The notes beneath the pieces are model-generated. The model was not told the DNA's origin and did no database searches. It was given only the letters and a program-made list of their open reading frames with translations. From contig JAGLOS010000001.1 in the NCBI GenBank assembly GCA_023137615.1, positions 1,067 through 65,066 of the forward strand: a DNA stretch of 64,000 bases, read 5' to 3'. Of this stretch, positions 18,399-55,695 are shown piece after piece. Source of the DNA: Minisyncoccota bacterium. Lineage in GTDB: Bacteria; Patescibacteriota; Minisyncoccia; Phycocordibacterales; JAGLOS01. Each line of letters starts with the position of its first letter. Positions within the stretch are counted from its first letter, which is position 1. Both the position numbers and the translations under genes were made by a program.

Positions 18399-18574
18399 AA
18401 TAACAGGTATTAAACTCCAGAGCAAGCTCTGGACTCAATTTTGAGTTCGCTTCGCTCACACTGACCCGCGGCAAGCCGACGGGGTATTTACCTGATATTA
18501 GCTCCTCGGCTCGGGAATGTAAAAGTTACGCTTCGCTCCACTTTTACATTCCGCTCGCTCTACGTCGCTAATAA
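18399..18574 (+). repeat. MITE-like intergenic repeat, family R1, copy A
   Basis: 176 bp between divergent cupin and U32 genes. Termini are taataacaggtattaaactccagag ... cgctcgctctacgtcgctaataa. Contains internal inverted repeat gaatgtaaaagt/acttttacattc. An inverted, longer copy lies at 52081-52370. Confidence 0.7.
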
Positions 18575-18683
18575 CAAACCCTAACTGCCATTATACTACA
18601 CTCCCATACATACACCATTAAGCTAACCGATCTGCTCTTTTTTTGCTTGGTGCTTTTCGTATCGACATACTTCTGCTATTCTA

Positions 18684-24516: not shown

Positions 24517-24580
24517 TTTTGGCGGTTATGTCACTAAAACTACTCTATACAAGGAGTCTTTACTACTTATTTGTCATGGG

Positions 24581-24678
24581 GTGCACTGCTCGCTCCACTT
24601 CGTTACGCTCCCAGCACTGTCCTTTGACAAAGCGACATAAAAACCGATGCTTTCGCATCGGTTTTTATGTCGGTCAAA
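24581..24678 (+). repeat. tRNA-flanking repeat, family R3, copy 1
   Basis: gtgcactgctcgctccacttcgttacgctcccagcac ... aaaaccgatgctttcgcatcggttttt. A related copy lies at 30490-30576. Both abut a minus-oriented tRNA 3' end. Confidence 0.6.
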
Positions 24679-24864
24679 GGGTGCCTACCCGGAATATTCA
24701 CTGCTCACTCCTTTCAGTCGTTGCGCTTTCGGAACCCACGGTTCCGAATGACCTCCTCCACGGGGGCGTTCCGCTGCCCCCGACCCCCTACGGGTTCAAA
24801 TCCGGGTAGACAACTTCTGATAACAAATAAACGACTAGCAAAAAGCTAGCCGTTTATTTGTTAT

Positions 24865-24939
24865 GGGGTGCCTACCCGGATTTGAACCGGGACTGGGGGC
24901 TCCACAAACCCCCGTGCTAACCATTACACCATAGGCACC
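24865..24939 (-). tRNA. tRNA-His(GTG)
   Basis: Cloverleaf with extra G-1 and C73 discriminator. Anticodon loop TTGTGGA. T-arm CCGGGTTCAAATCCGGG. Confidence 0.8.
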
Positions 24940-25203: not shown

Positions 25204-26184
25204 TTACATATCCCAAGTGAAACCGTTCCCAAAATGACCATATTGCGCGGTTTGGTAAAATTGCGGTTTGCGCAGATCAAGAAATTCAATAATAGCTTGC
25301 GGACGAAGATCATAACCTTTTACTTTTTCTTCTCTTCCGTCAACAAACGCAGTTGCCGCAAGCGGCTCGGGGTGTCCAATAGCGTATGCGATCTTCACCA
25401 CAGCTTCTTTCGCTCCCGCTTTTACATGATCCACGGCAATCTTGCGCGCCATGTATGCGGCGCTTCTATCTACTTTTGTTGCATCTTTTCCGGAAAAAGC
25501 GCCTCCCCCAACCGCAACACGCGGACCATACGCGTCCACTACGATCTTTCTGCCTGTGAGTCCCGCATCCGCGGCAAACCCACCTATTCTCCATTTACCG
25601 TTTGGATTTTTCATCCATGTTTTTTTAATATCGCCGTCAATATATGAGGCTATTTCTTTTTCAAAAACTTCATTCAAAACGACATCGCTTAAATCCCCAC
25701 TTTCACATAATGAAGTTATCACGTTAATGATCCTGCCCTCTTTTACTGTAACTTGCGCTTTGCCGTCGTGCCGCCCCATTGATCTTATCAATTTCCGAGC
25801 AAGTGACATCTCAAGCGGCATGAATTCCGGCGTCTCGTCGGTGGCATATCCAACCATGATACCTTGATCCCCCGCACCTTCATTGTCAACTCCTTTTTTA
25901 ATTTCATTACTTTGTCCGGAAACATAAACGGATATATCAACGTCATCTGTATATCCATTGTCTTTATATACTTGTTTAGCAATACTCTTGTAAACATTTT
26001 CTTCAATTGGCGCGTTTGTGGTGATCTCTCCTGTAAGCACAATATTGCCGTGCCCGCCAAGTGTCTCTATCGCCACTCGCGAATACGAGTCATGCTCCAA
26101 ACAAAAATCTAAAATAGCATCTGAGATTTGATCGCACACTTTGTCGGGGTGCGCCCGAGATACTGCTTCTGCTGTTTGAATCAT
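25204..26184 (-). CDS. metK: S-adenosylmethionine synthetase (short form)
   Basis: 326 aa. GHPDKVCDQISDA, GAGDQG and GGGAFSGKD motifs. Confidence 0.85.
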   Translation of the reverse strand: MIQTAEAVSRAHPDKVCDQISDAILDFCLEHDSYSRVAIETLGGHGNIVLTGEITTNAPIEENVYKSIAKQVYKDNGYTDDVDISVYVSGQSNEIKKGVDNEGAGDQGIMVGYATDETPEFMPLEMSLARKLIRSMGRHDGKAQVTVKEGRIINVITSLCESGDLSDVVLNEVFEKEIASYIDGDIKKTWMKNPNGKWRIGGFAADAGLTGRKIVVDAYGPRVAVGGGAFSGKDATKVDRSAAYMARKIAVDHVKAGAKEAVVKIAYAIGHPEPLAATAFVDGREEKVKGYDLRPQAIIEFLDLRKPQFYQTAQYGHFGNGFTWDM

Positions 26185-26210
26185 ATTTGTAACGTAATTA
26201 TTTAATAAAC

Positions 26211-26278
26211 AAAAAACTTTCCTCGTGAGGGAAAGATACGTTTAAGTCTGCTAGACAATAGTATCTTTCCCAAAAGGG
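26211..26278 (-). promoter_or_regulatory. metK leader terminator/antiterminator (attenuator-type expression platform)
   Basis: On the metK strand: gggaaagatac (21 nt) gtatctttccc tcac gaggaaag tttttt. The 11-bp antiterminator stem and the ctttcc/ggaaag terminator stem share ctttccc. The T-run ends about 26 nt before the ATG. Confidence 0.5.
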
Positions 26279-26385
26279 TACGAATGGAGCACCTTCCAAT
26301 TTGTGTCACCAAAAAGTGGTTGCTGGACGGATCATAGAGTCGTATCTCTTCCCGCCGCTCGTGATATTTTTCTATATTCGATTAT

Positions 26386-26410
26386 AAATACATACTATCA
26401 GTATGTATTT
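26386..26410. promoter_or_regulatory. 11-3-11 palindrome adjacent to putative metK -10 box
   Basis: aaatacatact atc agtatgtattt lies immediately next to TATAAT (minus strand) about 200 nt upstream of the metK start. Confidence 0.4.
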
Positions 26411-26567
26411 AGGATAACAAGATTGACAAGAAAGTAGTTACAAAAAAATACGCTTGACATATTTTGTGCTGAGCTAGTAGGGAGTTAGTCGCGAACACTT
26501 AGTTTTTTGAATATTTCATTTCGTTTCACTCATAAAATATTCTTAAAAGGTCTTGCGGAATGGGTCC

Positions 26568-26692
26568 CAGCCCCTTCTCCTCCACTTCGTTACAGAGCGG
26601 GGACCCGCTGCTCCGTCTTTCAACTCCCGCTCTGGGCTACATAATACAGCAACCCCGAAGCGCTGCTTCAGGGTTGGTATTTTGTGCTGAGT
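26568..26692 (+). repeat. 121-bp direct repeat unit B, copy 1
   Basis: Identical to the 26776-26895 copy. Contains an inverted copy of the tRNA-Leu 3' end (tcaactcccgctctgggc) and the ctccacttcgttac motif shared with family R3. Confidence 0.75.
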
Positions 26693-26775
26693 TGGTAGGG
26701 AGCTGGTCACGAATCACTAAGCTTTTTGTTCGTCTTTCAGACTCCAAAAAACTAAGTGTTCGCGACCCCGACTCG

Positions 26776-26895
26776 CAGCCCCTTCTCCTCCACTTCGTTA
26801 CAGAGCGGGGACCCGCTGCTCCGTCTTTCAACTCCCGCTCTGGGCTACATAATACAGCAACCCCGAAGCGCTGCTTCAGGGTTGGTATTTTGTGC
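26776..26895 (+). repeat. 121-bp direct repeat unit B, copy 2
   Basis: 100 percent identical to copy 1. Runs directly into the 3' end of tRNA-Leu. Confidence 0.75.
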
Positions 26896-26977
26896 CCAGA
26901 GCGGGAGTTGAACCCGCACGGTCGCAATGACCACTAGCCCCTCAAGCTAGCGTGTATACCAGTTTCACCACCTGGGC
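26893..26977 (-). tRNA. tRNA-Leu(GAG)
   Basis: 85 nt with long variable arm. Anticodon loop TTGAGGG. T-arm GCGGGTTCAACTCCCGC. Confidence 0.8.
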
Positions 26978-27047
26978 AATATTAGGATTCTACCAAAAAT
27001 ATGCAAAAAAGAAAGAGCCGGTATTACCGGCTCTTTCTTTTTTAAAA

Positions 27048-27587
27048 TTATTTTTCTTCTTTTTTCTCTTCCTTTGGTTTTTCCTCAATTTTTTCTTCGG
27101 TCTTTTCTTCCTTTTCTCTTTTGTCCGCAGGAGCTTCGGTGATAGACGTTGCTTCAGATATTGTATCACCTTCTGTTTGTTTTTCCTCCTCTTTGGACTC
27201 TTCTACTGAAATTTCTTCTACGACAGGAGCCGACATGATCTTTCGCATCTTTCGACGAATCTCACGAGCAACCTTCTCGCGAATATAATAAAGCTTTGCC
27301 CGTCGAACTTTTGAGCGTTTTACTATTTCAACTTTATCAATGGAAGGAGAATAAATTGGGAATATCTTCTCAACCCCCACTCCGCTCATAACCTTTCGTA
27401 CCGTGAAAGTCCCACCTGTTTCTTTTCCATGTTTTACCGCAAGTACCACGCCCTCAAATTTTTGAATACGTATCTTGCCCTTTTCCTGAATTTTCAAATG
27501 AACCCGAACAGTGTCTCCTGACCGGATGTCTAATTTCTTTCGCTCCTCAATATTTACCGGCGACAATGTGATTGTTGTATTTTCCAT
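27048..27587 (-). CDS. rplS: 50S ribosomal protein L19 with K/E-rich C-terminal extension
   Basis: 179 aa. L19 core ([32 protein letters not shown]...RRAKLYYIR) plus about 60 aa of EEK repeats. Confidence 0.85.
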
Positions 27588-29525: not shown

Positions 29526-29568
29526 AAACTATTTTGAGTTACTATAAATAAAAGCACTTCGTCTTATG

Positions 29569-29644
29569 TTATCTCCTCGGCTCGGAAGTAAAAAGTTTCG
29601 TTTTACTTCACTTTTTACTTCTCTCGCTCTACGTCGCTAATAAT
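29569..29644 (+). repeat. family R1 partial copy C
   Basis: ctcctcggctcggaagtaaaaagtttcgttttacttcactttttacttctctcgctctacgtcgctaataa. Overlaps the last codons and stop of acyP. Confidence 0.65.
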
Positions 29645-30088: not shown

Positions 30089-30162
30089 GGGCGATTAGCT
30101 CAGTTGGCTAGAGCAACCCGTTTACACCGGGTAGGTCGGGGGTTCAAATCCCTCATCGCCCA
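30089..30162 (+). tRNA. tRNA-Val(TAC)
   Basis: 74-nt cloverleaf. Anticodon loop TTTACAC. T-arm GGGGGTTCAAATCCCTC. Confidence 0.85.
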
Positions 30163-30164
30163 CA

Positions 30165-30207
30165 CGCAAAATTAAAATCACCCTTTTGGGGTGATTTTAA
30201 TTTTGCG
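30165..30207 (+). terminator. terminator hairpin after tRNA-Val
   Basis: cgcaaaattaaaatcaccccttttggggtgattttaattttgcg is a perfect long inverted repeat. Confidence 0.6.
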
Positions 30208-30399
30208 CTGTGACGATAGGAAGTGAACTGCTTCACTTCCGTGGGGATTTGAACGGCGGAGTATGTTGGTAAACACCGAGCAAAGCTTGGCGTTTACCAA
30301 CAGCGAGCCGCGTCCAGCGATACTTATTAGATTTCGATTCGTCTTTGACGAAAAAGAAATATAATTAGTAATCGTGGGACGAATCCCTCATCGCCCACA
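30208..30399 (+). repeat. tRNA-linked repeat family R2, copy 1 (ends in a duplicate of the tRNA-Val 3' end)
   Basis: Shares ggatttgaacggcggag, gcgagccgcgtccagcgaYacttaYtagatttcga and aaatataRttagtRatYgtgggac with 55470-55695. Its last 18 bp (aatccctcatcgcccaca) are a direct repeat of the tRNA-Val 3' end 220 bp upstream. Confidence 0.7.
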
Positions 30400-30489
30400 G
30401 CCGCCAAAACAGCACTTATCAGTGCTGTTTTGTTTTGCAACTTAGTAACAGCAACGAAAAAAAGATGCTTCGCAATCTATTTAAGTATA

Positions 30490-30576
30490 AGTGCACTGCT
30501 CACTCCTCTTCGTCCCATTCCCAGCACGACTTACGTAACAACAAAAAAACCGATGCTTTCGCATCGGTTTTTTGTT
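30490..30576 (+). repeat. family R3 copy 2, abutting tRNA-Arg 3' end
   Basis: gtgcactgctcactcctcttcgtcccattcccagcac ... aaaaaccgatgctttcgcatcggttttt. Confidence 0.6.
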
Positions 30577-30648
30577 GGTTACTAAGTGCCCCCGGCAGGA
30601 ATCGAACCTGCAATAAGAGCTTAGAAGGCTCTCGTTATATCCATTTAA
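30577..30648 (-). tRNA. tRNA-Arg(TCT)
   Basis: 72 nt. Anticodon loop CTTCTAA. T-arm GCAGGTTCGATTCCTGC. Acceptor GCCCCTG/CGGGGGC. Confidence 0.8.
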
Positions 30649-38465: not shown

Positions 38466-39162
38466 CATAAAACGTTCAACCCTAATGCGACACAGCATTG
38501 GGGTTGTTACGTTTTACCAGAAGGAGTGGGGTTCGAAAAAAGTCTCGTGCGAAGCCTAACGTAACGAAGTGAAGTCAGAACGAGACGGCGAGGTCACGAG
38601 TTCTTAGAGAAAACAAGTCCGCAGGACGTAGTTTGAACTTAGAACTGGGGACCGAATCCCAATCTCTCCGCAAACAGTAACTTCACGTTCCATACTCAAA
38701 TACCCAAAAAGTCTTTGTGGCAACAATAGACGACTGGTCGATAAACTTAAATAGTCTATCTACATCATAAGTGTAAACAACAGTCCCTGGAGAGGAACCC
38801 GTTGTTGCTGTGTATGGGGTTCCTTCACAATTAGCTTCTAAGTAAAATATTTGATATTAAAACGATTGTTAGTAAGCTCGGAAAACTTGTAAAAGGAAAA
38901 TAAGACTCTTAGCGCGTACTATTACCTATGATACGAGCACAAACAAAATACTCTTGGTAAAAAATACAGAAGCAAAATTTTGGTAAGCCCTTGGTGGTGG
39001 GTGGGAGTATGAGAAAGTTAAAGTATATAATTTATATTATCCCCGTTTATTTAAGTTTTTTACTGGTGTTTATATATTTTACATTTATACTTATAAATAA
39101 GACAAAACTGGGGATTTGTTGATTATTAGTTTTTATCAGTTTTAATAATCAATAACTTTAAT

Positions 39163-50014: not shown

Positions 50015-50086
50015 CCTCTCGTCGTTCAACGGATAGGACATAGCTTTGCGGAAGCTAAAATGTAGGTTCGATTCCTGCCGAGAGGA
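50015..50086 (+). tRNA. candidate tRNA-Arg(GCG)
   Basis: 72 nt. Acceptor CCTCTCG/CGAGAGG (7 bp perfect). D-arm GTTC-AACGGATA-GGAC. Anticodon arm TAGCT-TTGCGGA-AGCTA. T-arm GTAGG-TTCGATT-CCTGC. Discriminator A. Unusual C1-G72. Confidence 0.55.
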
Positions 50087-50112
50087 CAACTGAAGAAAGT
50101 GAGGGGGGGGAA

Positions 50113-50131
50113 ATTCCTGCCGAGAGGACAA
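50113..50131 (+). repeat. 19-bp direct duplicate of the candidate tRNA-Arg(GCG) 3' end
   Basis: attcctgccgagaggacaa repeats 50071-50089 after a 23-bp spacer. Confidence 0.65.
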
Positions 50132-52054: not shown

Positions 52055-52080
52055 CAAAAAACCGCCTTTCGGCGGTTTTT

Positions 52081-52370
52081 TTATTAGCGACGTAGAGCGA
52101 GCGGAATGTAAAAGTGGAGCGAAACGCAACTTTTACATTTCCAAGCCGAGGATCTAATATCGGATAAACCCGTCTGCCGGCAGGCGGGTACTCCGTCGGC
52201 TTGCTGCGGGAAAATGTGAGCAAAACGAATTCAAAATTGAGTCCAGAGTGAGAAGCGAATACTTGGAGCTTCGCAAGACTCATTGAGAGCTTTTATGAGC
52301 AAAGCGAAATAAAAGATCCAATGAGTGGACAGAACCTGTAAGGTTTGCTCTGGGGTTTAATACCTGTTAT
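52081..52370 (-). repeat. MITE-like repeat family R1, copy B (inverted, extended)
   Basis: Reverse complement of copy A, with the same termini (ttattagcgacgtagagcgagcgg ... tttaatacctgttatt). Carries two internal insertions of about 25 and about 100 bp relative to copy A. Confidence 0.7.
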
Positions 52371-55285: not shown

Positions 55286-55469
55286 AGCAAACTGCTTTGC
55301 TTGCGACGCTTGTCCGAGGCGGAACCATAATTTTTCTGTAATGAAATGGAAGAAAAATAGGTGAGCCGGGGTCGCGAGCACTTAGCAGATTTGAATCTGA
55401 GTTTACGAAGATGCGACATTGTTTTCTTATGAGTGAAACGAATTAGAAAACAAGAAGTGCCCTTGTGGT

Positions 55470-55695
55470 GAAAAATATGCTTAGTGACTTGTGACGACAA
55501 TGGATCTGAACGGCGGAGCATGGGTCCCTGCCTGAAACGAAGTGTAAGGTAGGGCTGCGAGCCGCGTCCAGCGACACTTACTAGATTTCGAGTGAAGCGG
55601 AGAAATATAGTTAGTGATTGTGGGACAAGTCCTGTGTTTATCTTTAAATTCGAGCCTTGCGAGAACAAAAAATATGCTTAGTGACTTGTGACGAC
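55470..55695 (+). repeat. tRNA-linked repeat family R2, copy 2, flanked by 27-bp direct repeats
   Basis: The core shares three blocks with 30208-30399. It is flanked by aaaaatatgcttagtgacttgtgacgac at 55472-55498 and again at 55668-55694. Confidence 0.7.

Follow-up and report, generated by a model that had tools for sequence, protein, structure and literature searches.

What is a perfectly duplicated sequence that carries an inverted tRNA end doing directly beside an intact tRNA gene? The question arises at tRNA-Leu(GAG) of a Minisyncoccota bacterium (Patescibacteria), within a stretch of 64,000 nucleotides (nt) of contig JAGLOS010000001.1 (assembly GCA_023137615.1), the whole of which we call the window. 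We find that the locus is the 3′ trailer of tRNA-Leu(GAG), with two tandem, structured cassettes of ~210 nt that contain no open reading frame (ORF). On balance, and with moderate confidence, we favor the view that these are two copies of a non-autonomous mobile insertion cassette that enters at tRNA 3′ ends. We do so because of presence and absence among relatives, reordered arrays, degenerate copies, nested insertions, duplications of target ends, and the occurrence of one scaffold lineage at several tRNAs.

Two tandem cassettes behind tRNA-Leu(GAG)

Base-by-base comparison gave unbroken identity between 26568-26687 and 26776-26895 (120/120, at an offset of 208 nt), and a repeat search returned nearly the same pair (26565-26687 and 26773-26895; 123 nt, 99%). 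A preliminary description of this DNA had reported such a perfect direct repeat, there called unit B, with the 3′ end of tRNA-Leu inverted inside each copy and the second copy running into the tRNA itself; all three observations were borne out. The last 19 nt of tRNA-Leu(GAG), TTCAACTCCCGCTCTGGGC, have three matches in the window, compared to 0.01 expected by chance. One is the tRNA's own, on the minus strand, and the other two are on the plus strand, one in each copy of the repeat (Table 1).

The gene order on the minus strand is uppS, a pseudouridine synthase gene, rplS, a terminator, tRNA-Leu, the repeats, a leader resembling an S-adenosylmethionine (SAM) riboswitch, and metK. An identical MetK protein carries the name Candidatus Pacebacteria/Paceibacteria. 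The repeats lie 3′ of tRNA-Leu and are therefore to be read on the minus strand. A part in the tRNA-Leu promoter, which had been offered as an alternative from a reading of the wrong strand, is excluded by this position.

Read in this direction, units A and B, previously taken as separate, are instead the two halves of a single ~210-nt element. The spacer between the B copies had been said to hold inverted copies of a 45-base-pair unit A. Unit A is real, but it recurs as one direct copy (26460-26495 and 26678-26713, 86% identity), and what is inverted is a separate 22-nt block (26745-26766, 100% complementary to 26488-26509). A long-range stem between cagagcgggg and cccgctctg had also been proposed; it is an alternative pairing of the antisense segment with the scaffold helix P4, and its P4 sequence recurs in a tRNA-Val-linked copy of a relative.

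A cassette thus defined consists of a trailer with a hairpin that is capped or terminator-like, an antisense segment that covers the tRNA 3′ end from T loop to discriminator base, a conserved scaffold with helices Px, P4, and P5, and a downstream direct copy of the tRNA end, which we call S_R (the end of the tRNA itself being S_L). Cassette 2, proximal to the tRNA, is intact. Its match to R1, a covariance model of the cassette scaffold (Px, P4, and P5) built in this analysis, begins 54 nt past tRNA-Leu and scores 98.8 bits (26691-26839, minus strand; E = 7.5e-21). Cassette 1 comes next in tandem and, at 9.5 bits with R1, is a degenerate member. S_R2 and S_R1 retain AACTCCC/AGCTCCC and the GCACAAAATA junction, with only ~8 of 17 positions equal to S_L. 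The minus-strand hairpins at 26884-26858 and 26676-26650 qualify as intrinsic (Rho-independent) terminators, with a GC-rich stem followed by a T run; this accounts for only ~40 of the 208 nt in a unit.

The two 120-nt 5′ halves agree at every position, compared to only 86% in the neighboring 3′ halves, a contrast that speaks for a very recent exchange between the cassettes, by unequal crossover or gene conversion. The recent duplication or conversion suggested at the outset is thereby supported. The P5 5′ strand of cassette 2 also pairs perfectly, over 22 nt, with its P5 3′ counterpart in cassette 1; this is atypical, without the bulge and the G·U pair of the family, and suggests a recent DNA-level copying event.

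The two-copy sequence is also present, 100% identical to the window, in the metagenome-assembled genome (MAG) GCA_030634645.1 (L001; loci fetched for comparison carry L numbers). L002, a metagenome scaffold from an independent assembly, starts inside tRNA-Leu and has one B copy, without the 208-nt unit. Therefore, the copy number at tRNA-Leu is either polymorphic or has been collapsed or expanded by assembly.

A conserved scaffold with a target-matched antisense segment

Is this arrangement peculiar to tRNA-Leu? A search for unit B elsewhere had been recommended; the element of which it is one half is not confined to the locus but is a member of a large family behind many Patescibacteria tRNAs. 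A degenerate scaffold pattern found 25 loci in contigs from one genome per species, of which 24 are labeled Patescibacteria (Paceibacteria, Campbellbacteria, Nomurabacteria, and MAGs labeled "Saccharibacteria"); the lone other label is that of L015, a 1.9-kb contig in a Bacteroidetes-labeled bin. A 24-nt core returned 60 metagenome loci, 56 of them real and 4 GC-rich chance matches, and the scaffold pattern had no match in viral contigs. R1 identified 120 copies in 523 kb of fetched loci. Of these matches, 72 (60%) begin within 130 nt of a tRNA on the same strand, against a background of 1.5%; a further 12 lie farther down arrays and 18 at contig edges. Nearly half of the R1 matches that the exact pattern had missed (20/41) also begin within 130 nt of a tRNA. 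The tRNA-linked cassettes cover 17 amino-acid identities, and identical direct repeats of the tRNA 3′ end flank family inserts (for example, 17 to 39 nt at Val, Pro, Ser, and Leu[tag]; decayed at tRNA-Leu[GAG]). A few copies lie behind protein genes (rplL and one unnamed gene), with the antisense segment directed against the end of the coding sequence. There, the C terminus of the live gene is encoded again by the downstream sense copy, through synonymous codons (CGC/CGT versus CGA/CGA in L023; GGC/GTC/AAC versus GGT/GTT/AAT in L029).

The family appears to be previously undescribed. Rfam, searched with the whole window at gathering score and permissively with the tRNA-Leu locus and three other loci, gave no cassette match; its only returns were tRNAs, a SAM riboswitch below threshold, and hairpins matched by chance. 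The full-text literature searched contained no prior description of such elements, although its coverage is incomplete and this is no proof of novelty.

The fold was predicted by RNAalifold from an alignment of 61 distinct copies (A1), and the helix of the antisense T-arm segment with the downstream copy was added to it by hand. The prediction shows Px, in which GGC/GCC flanks a GA-rich internal loop (3x2) and 8 sequences carry a GC-to-AU swap, and a long P5, with 12 pairs changed on both sides, a conserved bulge, and a G·U pair; the P4 hairpin is variable. With the added helix, paired cells amount to 92.4%, compared to 34 to 39% with slid partners, and the covariation score is 0.499, compared to 0.07 to 0.11; none of 500 shuffles reached 0.499. 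The P3 helix, which joins the antisense segment to S_R, is paired in 79% of cells. By a hand tally of the per-pair tables, G·U pairs far outnumber A·C (~40 versus 6); the scaffold therefore folds on the tRNA-sense strand, whether it does so as RNA or single-stranded DNA. Two scaffold types can be told apart, type 1 having GCGAGCCGCGTCCAGCGAT with AATCGTGGGAC and type 2 having GCGAGYCGGGGTCGCGAAC with GATTCGTGAC; the tRNA-Leu copies are type 2.

To which sequence does the antisense segment remain matched? Among 47 non-redundant copies directly behind a tRNA, S_R equals the tRNA end at 17/17 positions in 14, the others showing various degrees of decay. When S_R is not the same as S_L, the antisense segment lies nearer to S_L in 21 copies and to S_R in 9, with 3 ties. 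At tRNA-Leu, the duplex predicted for the antisense segment is -42.5 kcal/mol with the tRNA end and -16 to -19 kcal/mol with S_R2 and S_R1. S_R thus behaves like a discarded remnant, with the pairing between antisense segment and tRNA maintained. The idea of an obligatory closing helix between antisense segment and S_R is weakened, since S_R decays while the antisense segment does not.

Within the window, R1 has five matches (Lys twice, Val, Leu, and Ser; Table 1). At the tRNA-Ser copy, S_L and S_R match at 19/20 positions. After tRNA-Val (30089-30163) come a terminator, a segment antisense to the Val T arm and acceptor, the scaffold, and an exact 18-nt tRNA-Val end (30382-30399); this cassette (30164-30399) is a young copy whose S_R is still intact. 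The tRNA-His trailer (minus strand, within 24560-24870) follows the same logic with a different scaffold, having an antisense of the His T arm and acceptor (24786-24807 in the plus-strand text) and a sense copy near 24686-24702. Behind tRNA-Arg(GCG), the 19 nt of the tRNA 3′ end, ATTCCTGCCGAGAGGACAA, are directly repeated at a distance of only 24 nt and without a scaffold (50070-50131); this bare duplication may represent an insertion of minimal size or the scar of a deletion.

Comparison with relatives suggests gain, loss, and change of target. In L005/L098, L009, L096, and L097, tRNA-Leu(GAG) is followed by a terminator or plain sequence, with no R1 match. The tRNA-Val sequence is identical in the window, L095, and L096 (UppS 83 to 84% identical), and the arrays behind it differ: tRNA, intact type-1 cassette, S_R, and terminator T2 in the window; tRNA, T2, type-2 cassette, decayed S_R, and degenerate type-1 cassette in L096; and tRNA, T2, type-2 cassette, S_R, type-1 cassette, S_R, and T2 in L095. 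L098 has no cassette at tRNA-Val. That the order differs between lineages implies that cassettes have entered behind the tRNA repeatedly and independently, at its 3′ end; in the only comparison that fixes the order (tRNA-Val in the window and L096), the intact cassette adjoins the tRNA and the degenerate one is downstream. The scaffold of Leu cassette 2 is ~85% identical (by eye, not computed) to the type-2 tRNA-Val cassette of L095, including the P4 stretch CCCGCTCTG, and the antisense segments are Leu specific in one and Val specific in the other. Similarly, in one metagenome the scaffolds at tRNA-Phe (L052) and tRNA-Gln (L089) are 98% identical and that at tRNA-Lys is 93 to 95% identical to both, each with its own matching antisense segment.

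The tRNA-Leu gene itself shows many differences from L096 (5972-6056) and L097 (3439-3523), in the D arm, anticodon stem, variable arm, T stem, and acceptor, though the tRNA-Val is identical. This is compatible with the whole tRNA-Leu gene having been swapped for a foreign allele that arrived with the cassette.

Table 1. Features of the tRNA-Leu(GAG) locus, and R1 matches across the window
Feature	Position	Strand	Basis or score
tRNA-Leu(GAG)	26893-26977 (end also given as 26892)	minus	ARAGORN; Rfam tRNA 50.2 bits
S_L, the 3′ 19 nt of tRNA-Leu, target sequence	26894-26912	minus	
Cassette 2 (tRNA proximal), trailer CAAAATACC, terminator-like hairpin (stem 26858-26884), and CTGTATTATGTA	26846-26892	minus	Terminator scan, fold
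Cassette 2, antisense segment GCCCAGAGCGGGAGTTGAA, 19/19 complementary to tRNA-Leu T-loop/T-stem/acceptor 3′ strand	26827-26845	minus	
Cassette 2, conserved scaffold	26706-26825	minus	R1 match; helices with covariation in 61 sequences
Cassette 2, Px 5′ strand GACGGAG	26819-26825	minus	
Cassette 2, P4	26776-26818	minus	
Cassette 2, Px 3′ strand and P5 5′ strand (CGAGTCGGGGTCGCGAACACTTAG... comprises P5 5′ strand, loop, and 3′ strand)	26745-26775	minus	
Cassette 2, P5 loop	26729-26744	minus	
Cassette 2, P5 3′ strand, ending GTGAC before the tRNA-3′-end-like stretch	26706-26728	minus	
Cassette 2, S_R2 CAGCTCCCTACCAACTCAGCA, decayed tRNA-3′-end-like direct copy, then GCACAAAATA junction as at the tRNA	26685-26705	minus	
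Cassette 1 (distal), 5′ half, same as cassette 2	26568-26684	minus	120/120 identity run
Cassette 1, parts of the 5′ half: hairpin; antisense; GACGGAG; P4	26650-26676; 26619-26637; 26611-26617; 26568-26610	minus	
Cassette 1, degenerate 3′ half	26467-26567	minus	R1 9.5 bits on 26491-26631
Cassette 1, GGACCC...TTTTAA in place of Px 3′ strand and P5 5′ strand	26543-26567	minus	
Cassette 1, nested capped hairpin	26509-26542	minus	
Cassette 1, P5 3′ strand, perfectly complementary to cassette 2 P5 5′ strand	26488-26508	minus	
Cassette 1, S_R1	26467-26487	minus	
AT-rich hairpin with a T run, beyond the final GCACAAAATA junction; probable array end (original flank or terminator)	26440-26466	minus	Whole-region fold
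SAM-I riboswitch-like leader of metK (25204-26184)	26258-26370	minus	RF00162 33.8 bits (gathering score 44.4); metK by Pfam domains
R1 match, tRNA-Lys	55498-55640		108 bits
R1 match, tRNA-Val	30241-30394		102 bits
R1 match, tRNA-Leu	26691-26839	minus	99 bits (98.8)
R1 match, tRNA-Lys, second copy	55318-55495		57 bits
R1 match behind tRNA-Ser	38525-38667		26.5 bits

Of the neighboring features, the SAM-I-like leader is the next transcription unit and outside the cassette; an upstream metK leader of the same sequence is visible in the relatives L004, L005, and L009. L19, the product of rplS (179 amino acids), has a C-terminal tail of ~65 amino acids past its Pfam domain (27048-27250, minus strand), encoded by purine/pyrimidine-skewed, internally repetitive DNA (repeats at 27051-27121). 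tRNA-His and tRNA-Arg(TCT) (region 30430-30585, minus strand) have in common a GTGCTGGGA..GAGCAGTGCAC module and a terminator whose two copies, at 24635-24666 and 30541-30572, are 97% identical. Just past tRNA-His in one relative (L005 8493-8981; L006 4578-5066; MetK identity 86%) stand three genes, one GmrSD-like, one HEPN, and one for a large serine recombinase, which together look like a small defense or mobile island at that tRNA.

A second, unrelated intergenic repeat family of ~190 to 280 nt, starting TTATTAGCGACGTAGAGCGAG..GGAATGTAAAAGT and having several capped hairpins, is found at 52074-52350 (plus), 18427-18581 (minus), and 29563-29643 (plus) as well as in L004 (505-910) and L009 (3805-3980). 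It follows protein genes, and in L009 it sits between the riboswitch terminator and the metK start. Small capped hairpins, for example CACCACAAGGGCACTTCTT...AAGAAGTGCCCTTGTGGTG and TTATGAGTGAAACGAA, are nested in the loops and strands of other elements (55400-55470 and 26509-26542; L004 560-620 and 760-830; the tRNA-Val arrays of L095 and L096), and the cap GAGCGNAGCGAA or GAGTGAAACGAA stands at the tips of most hairpins in both repeat families.

Proposed entry at the tRNA 3′ end and rival explanations

How might a cassette come to lie behind a tRNA? We imagine that entry would occur by recombination across the common tRNA 3′-end sequence. This could be homologous recombination, with the tRNA and S_R serving as portable arms, for example after DNA uptake; alternatively, a trans-acting recombinase or transposase could read the sense/antisense pairing and the scaffold. 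Both routes fit the data. With either, each entry would rebuild the tRNA and shift older cassettes downstream. Such a model would account for the intact tRNA or protein gene and for the downstream direct copy that decays, as well as for the proximal position of the intact cassette in the window and L096 and for the allele-like downstream copy at protein genes.

Several observations weigh against a mobile cassette. Transposase, integrase, and reverse transcriptase were found neither in the window nor recurrently near cassettes. A scan of the 47 window ORFs of at least 150 amino acids turned up type IV pilus genes and not one for a recombinase, transposase, or reverse transcriptase. On the other side, and in keeping with an ORF-less, non-autonomous cassette, no copy at the 85 loci contains an ORF, and the only gene families that recur near cassettes are housekeeping genes. 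Copies without a 3′ anchor, considered as autonomous ORF-bearing relatives, proved to be short-P5/long-P5 variants with nested hairpin insertions or the 4 GC-rich chance matches. A further point against mobility is that the comparison of filled and empty tRNA-Leu sites does not come from near-identical genomes, the tRNA-Leu sequences of the relatives being different. Strong conservation and G·U pairs would be expected of a functional RNA and would be needless for a homology-driven DNA parasite. Similarly, an antisense segment that stays matched to the tRNA while S_R decays suggests selection on tRNA pairing, so that a host or RNA-level function is possible. A test of strand bias in the antisense/tRNA mismatches, which bears on RNA versus duplex DNA, gave 23 versus 18 (p = 0.53). 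Near-identical scaffolds at different tRNAs could come from gene conversion and not from recent movement, and the two-copy state could be an assembly product, given L002.

Because the fold is conserved and the antisense segment is maintained, more than passive homology must be under selection, which keeps a functional-RNA reading alive. It is possible, in our tentative view, that the cassette represents a new class of guided mobile element without protein genes, or of guide RNA, in which a conserved ~130-nt scaffold is joined to a programmable segment that is rewritten to match the 3′ end of a host gene. The target would be found by base pairing, as RNA or as folded single-stranded DNA that has been taken up; the partner enzyme would be trans-acting, the hosts naturally competent and ultra-small, and the targets abundant genes, mostly tRNA. 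It is rather unlikely, in our estimation, that the cassette is instead a host or domesticated noncoding RNA, cotranscribed with the tRNA, whose antisense segment pairs with the tRNA 3′ strand or with S_R to give a minihelix resembling an acceptor and T arm. The scaffold of such an RNA may bind a protein or act catalytically, and the RNA may serve in pre-tRNA 3′ processing or in quality control, as a decoy for toxins that target tRNA, or as a switch by alternative pairing of three segments (tRNA end, antisense, and sense copy). The covariation and G·U pairs on the tRNA-sense strand, the strict co-orientation with the tRNA, and the close spacing behind it would all be consistent with this, as would antisense segments still complementary to the live tRNA where S_R has decayed. 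Antisense segment and S_R are able to form a closing helix in young copies (the 79% of paired cells in P3), and the GA-rich internal loops and GAGCGNAGCGAA-type caps resemble protein-binding RNA modules. However, only some tRNAs have a cassette, and it is absent at orthologous tRNAs of close relatives; selfish DNA typically shows degenerate copies, tandem arrays, and nested insertions like those seen here; in many copies the antisense segment is separated from the tRNA by a complete intrinsic terminator; the family is also found behind protein-coding genes; and S_R is not maintained.

Other explanations have less in their favor. We consider it improbable that the 120-nt duplication is an assembly artifact, a repeat loop traversed once too often, with one degenerate or hybrid cassette really present. 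L002, with its single B copy and its start inside tRNA-Leu, is what this would predict, and contigs of the lineage often break near these repeats, those with identical UppS being at most 1.9 kb. Yet both the window and GCA_030634645.1 have two copies, the 85-nt "spacer" is a family-typical P5 plus S_R that completes cassette 2 (98.8 bits), and tandem arrays are common in other genomes. A still smaller likelihood attaches to attL/attR scars of integrase-mediated islands or prophages at tRNAs, devoid of function or mobility of their own. The direct repeats do begin in the T loop, as at many att sites of tyrosine integrases, tRNA-Arg(GCG) has its bare 19-nt duplication without a scaffold, and in one relative a serine recombinase is near tRNA-His. 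Scars would not explain a 130-nt scaffold that covaries across distant Patescibacteria and 17 tRNA identities, nor does Campbell-type integration make an antisense target copy; moreover, no integrase was found in the window or recurrently nearby, and the pattern is without a match in viral contigs. Finally, we give practically no credence to real small proteins from the two predicted ORFs (26560-26937, plus; 26637-26927, minus), which had already been suspected as artifacts, a suspicion we share. The 125-amino-acid plus-strand ORF is annotated as a gene in the public MAG GCA_030634645.1 (L001 2248-2625). It is almost certainly a spurious gene call: it reads the two identical B copies in different frames (208 = 3x69+1) and crosses tRNA-Leu in antisense direction. 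Neither ORF has a match in Pfam, and the DNA is accounted for by a noncoding family with RNA-type covariation.

Comparison with known systems and significance

If the cassette is mobile, which known system does it resemble? By analogy, it appears to work most like a miniature tRNA-targeting integrative element. Tyrosine-integrase islands, prophages, integrative and conjugative elements, and their non-autonomous derivatives, the cis-mobilizable elements (CIMEs), likewise insert at a tRNA 3′ end, rebuild the tRNA, leave a direct repeat from the T loop onward, and accrete in tandem with the newest adjoining the tRNA. The cassettes differ in being 150 to 220 nt long, without an integrase and with one scaffold at 17 tRNA identities, in having an internal antisense copy of the target, and in occurring also at the 3′ ends of protein genes. 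Elements of the IS200/IS605 group of insertion sequences and their ORF-less palindrome-associated transposable elements (PATEs) are similarly strand specific and hairpin rich, can be ORF-less, and have an internal segment that pairs with the sequence immediately 5′ of the left end, as in the pairing of guide and cleavage site used by TnpA. The target choice of IS608 can be reprogrammed by changing the guide. In the cassettes, however, the pairing covers 17 to 20 nt compared to 4 to 5 nt, and a sense copy of the target is found at the right end. No TnpA or TnpB recurs near the loci, and there was no Rfam match to IS605 or omega RNA, at gathering or permissive thresholds, to indicate an IS200/IS605-type PATE or omega RNA.

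Other systems offer partial parallels. As with attP(+) of the CTX phage, used by XerCD, and attC of integrons, sense and antisense sites around a loop could rebuild a duplex target when single stranded, and the conserved bulged base and mismatch of P5 may recall the extrahelical bases of attC. The target here is a tRNA 3′ end, not dif or attI, and there is no phage genome, cassette gene, or linked recombinase. The IS110 bridge RNA and the omega RNA of IscB/TnpB share with the cassettes a ~130-nt scaffold plus a target-complementary segment that varies while the scaffold is constant; the cassettes differ in that no recombinase or nuclease gene is adjacent, the guide-like segment targets the gene immediately upstream, and there is no Rfam relation. 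The primer-binding sites of retroviruses and long terminal repeat elements are also complementary to the ~18 3′-terminal nt of a tRNA, reaching into the T loop, and a retroviral primer-binding site is copied anew from the tRNA and hence stays matched. A primer-binding site was nevertheless rejected: the antisense segment lacks the CCA complement (GTAGCCCAG, not TGGTGCCCAG) and is preceded 5′ by TGTA, not TGGT, there is no reverse-transcriptase domain in the window, and the cassettes, unlike primer-binding sites, adjoin the tRNA gene itself. A miniature inverted-repeat transposable element (MITE) can be set aside as well, for the sole inverted terminal pair (antisense and S_R) changes with the target, the duplication is 17 to 40 nt, and no autonomous relative was found at the 85 loci. 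H/ACA-like or box C/D-like guides were likewise set aside, because the bipartite antisense segment pairs contiguously and leaves no target nucleotide unpaired.

Group I introns deserve mention, being known from tRNAs of the same phylum. Those described in Patescibacteria lie in the anticodon loop, are recognized by the Rfam group I model, and were shown to splice (PMC13011429). Beyond phylum and host genes, there is a likeness in that the tRNA end, loop, and antisense segment resemble P1 with its internal guide sequence. The cassettes, however, have no RF00028 match (E ≤ 10 for 26000-27400; E ≤ 0.1 for L013, L016, and L034), and the upstream tRNA is intact. In all, the cassette fails the defining test of each family compared, whether integrative element (integrase), IS605, MITE, group I intron, or primer-binding site.

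In practical terms, the cassettes lead to broken assemblies and to spurious ORFs in public MAG annotations, and they can swap the 3′ ends of tRNA and protein genes for foreign copies. Programmable systems guided by base pairing are marked by just such a union of a constant, folded scaffold and an antisense segment that matches the target, and the enzyme that reads the cassette, if found, could reveal a new targeting mechanism. The reduced genomes of Patescibacteria were not expected to tolerate much selfish DNA. An abundant family with a conserved structure, bound to tRNA ends and outside both Rfam and the literature searched, would be a new player in these bacteria.

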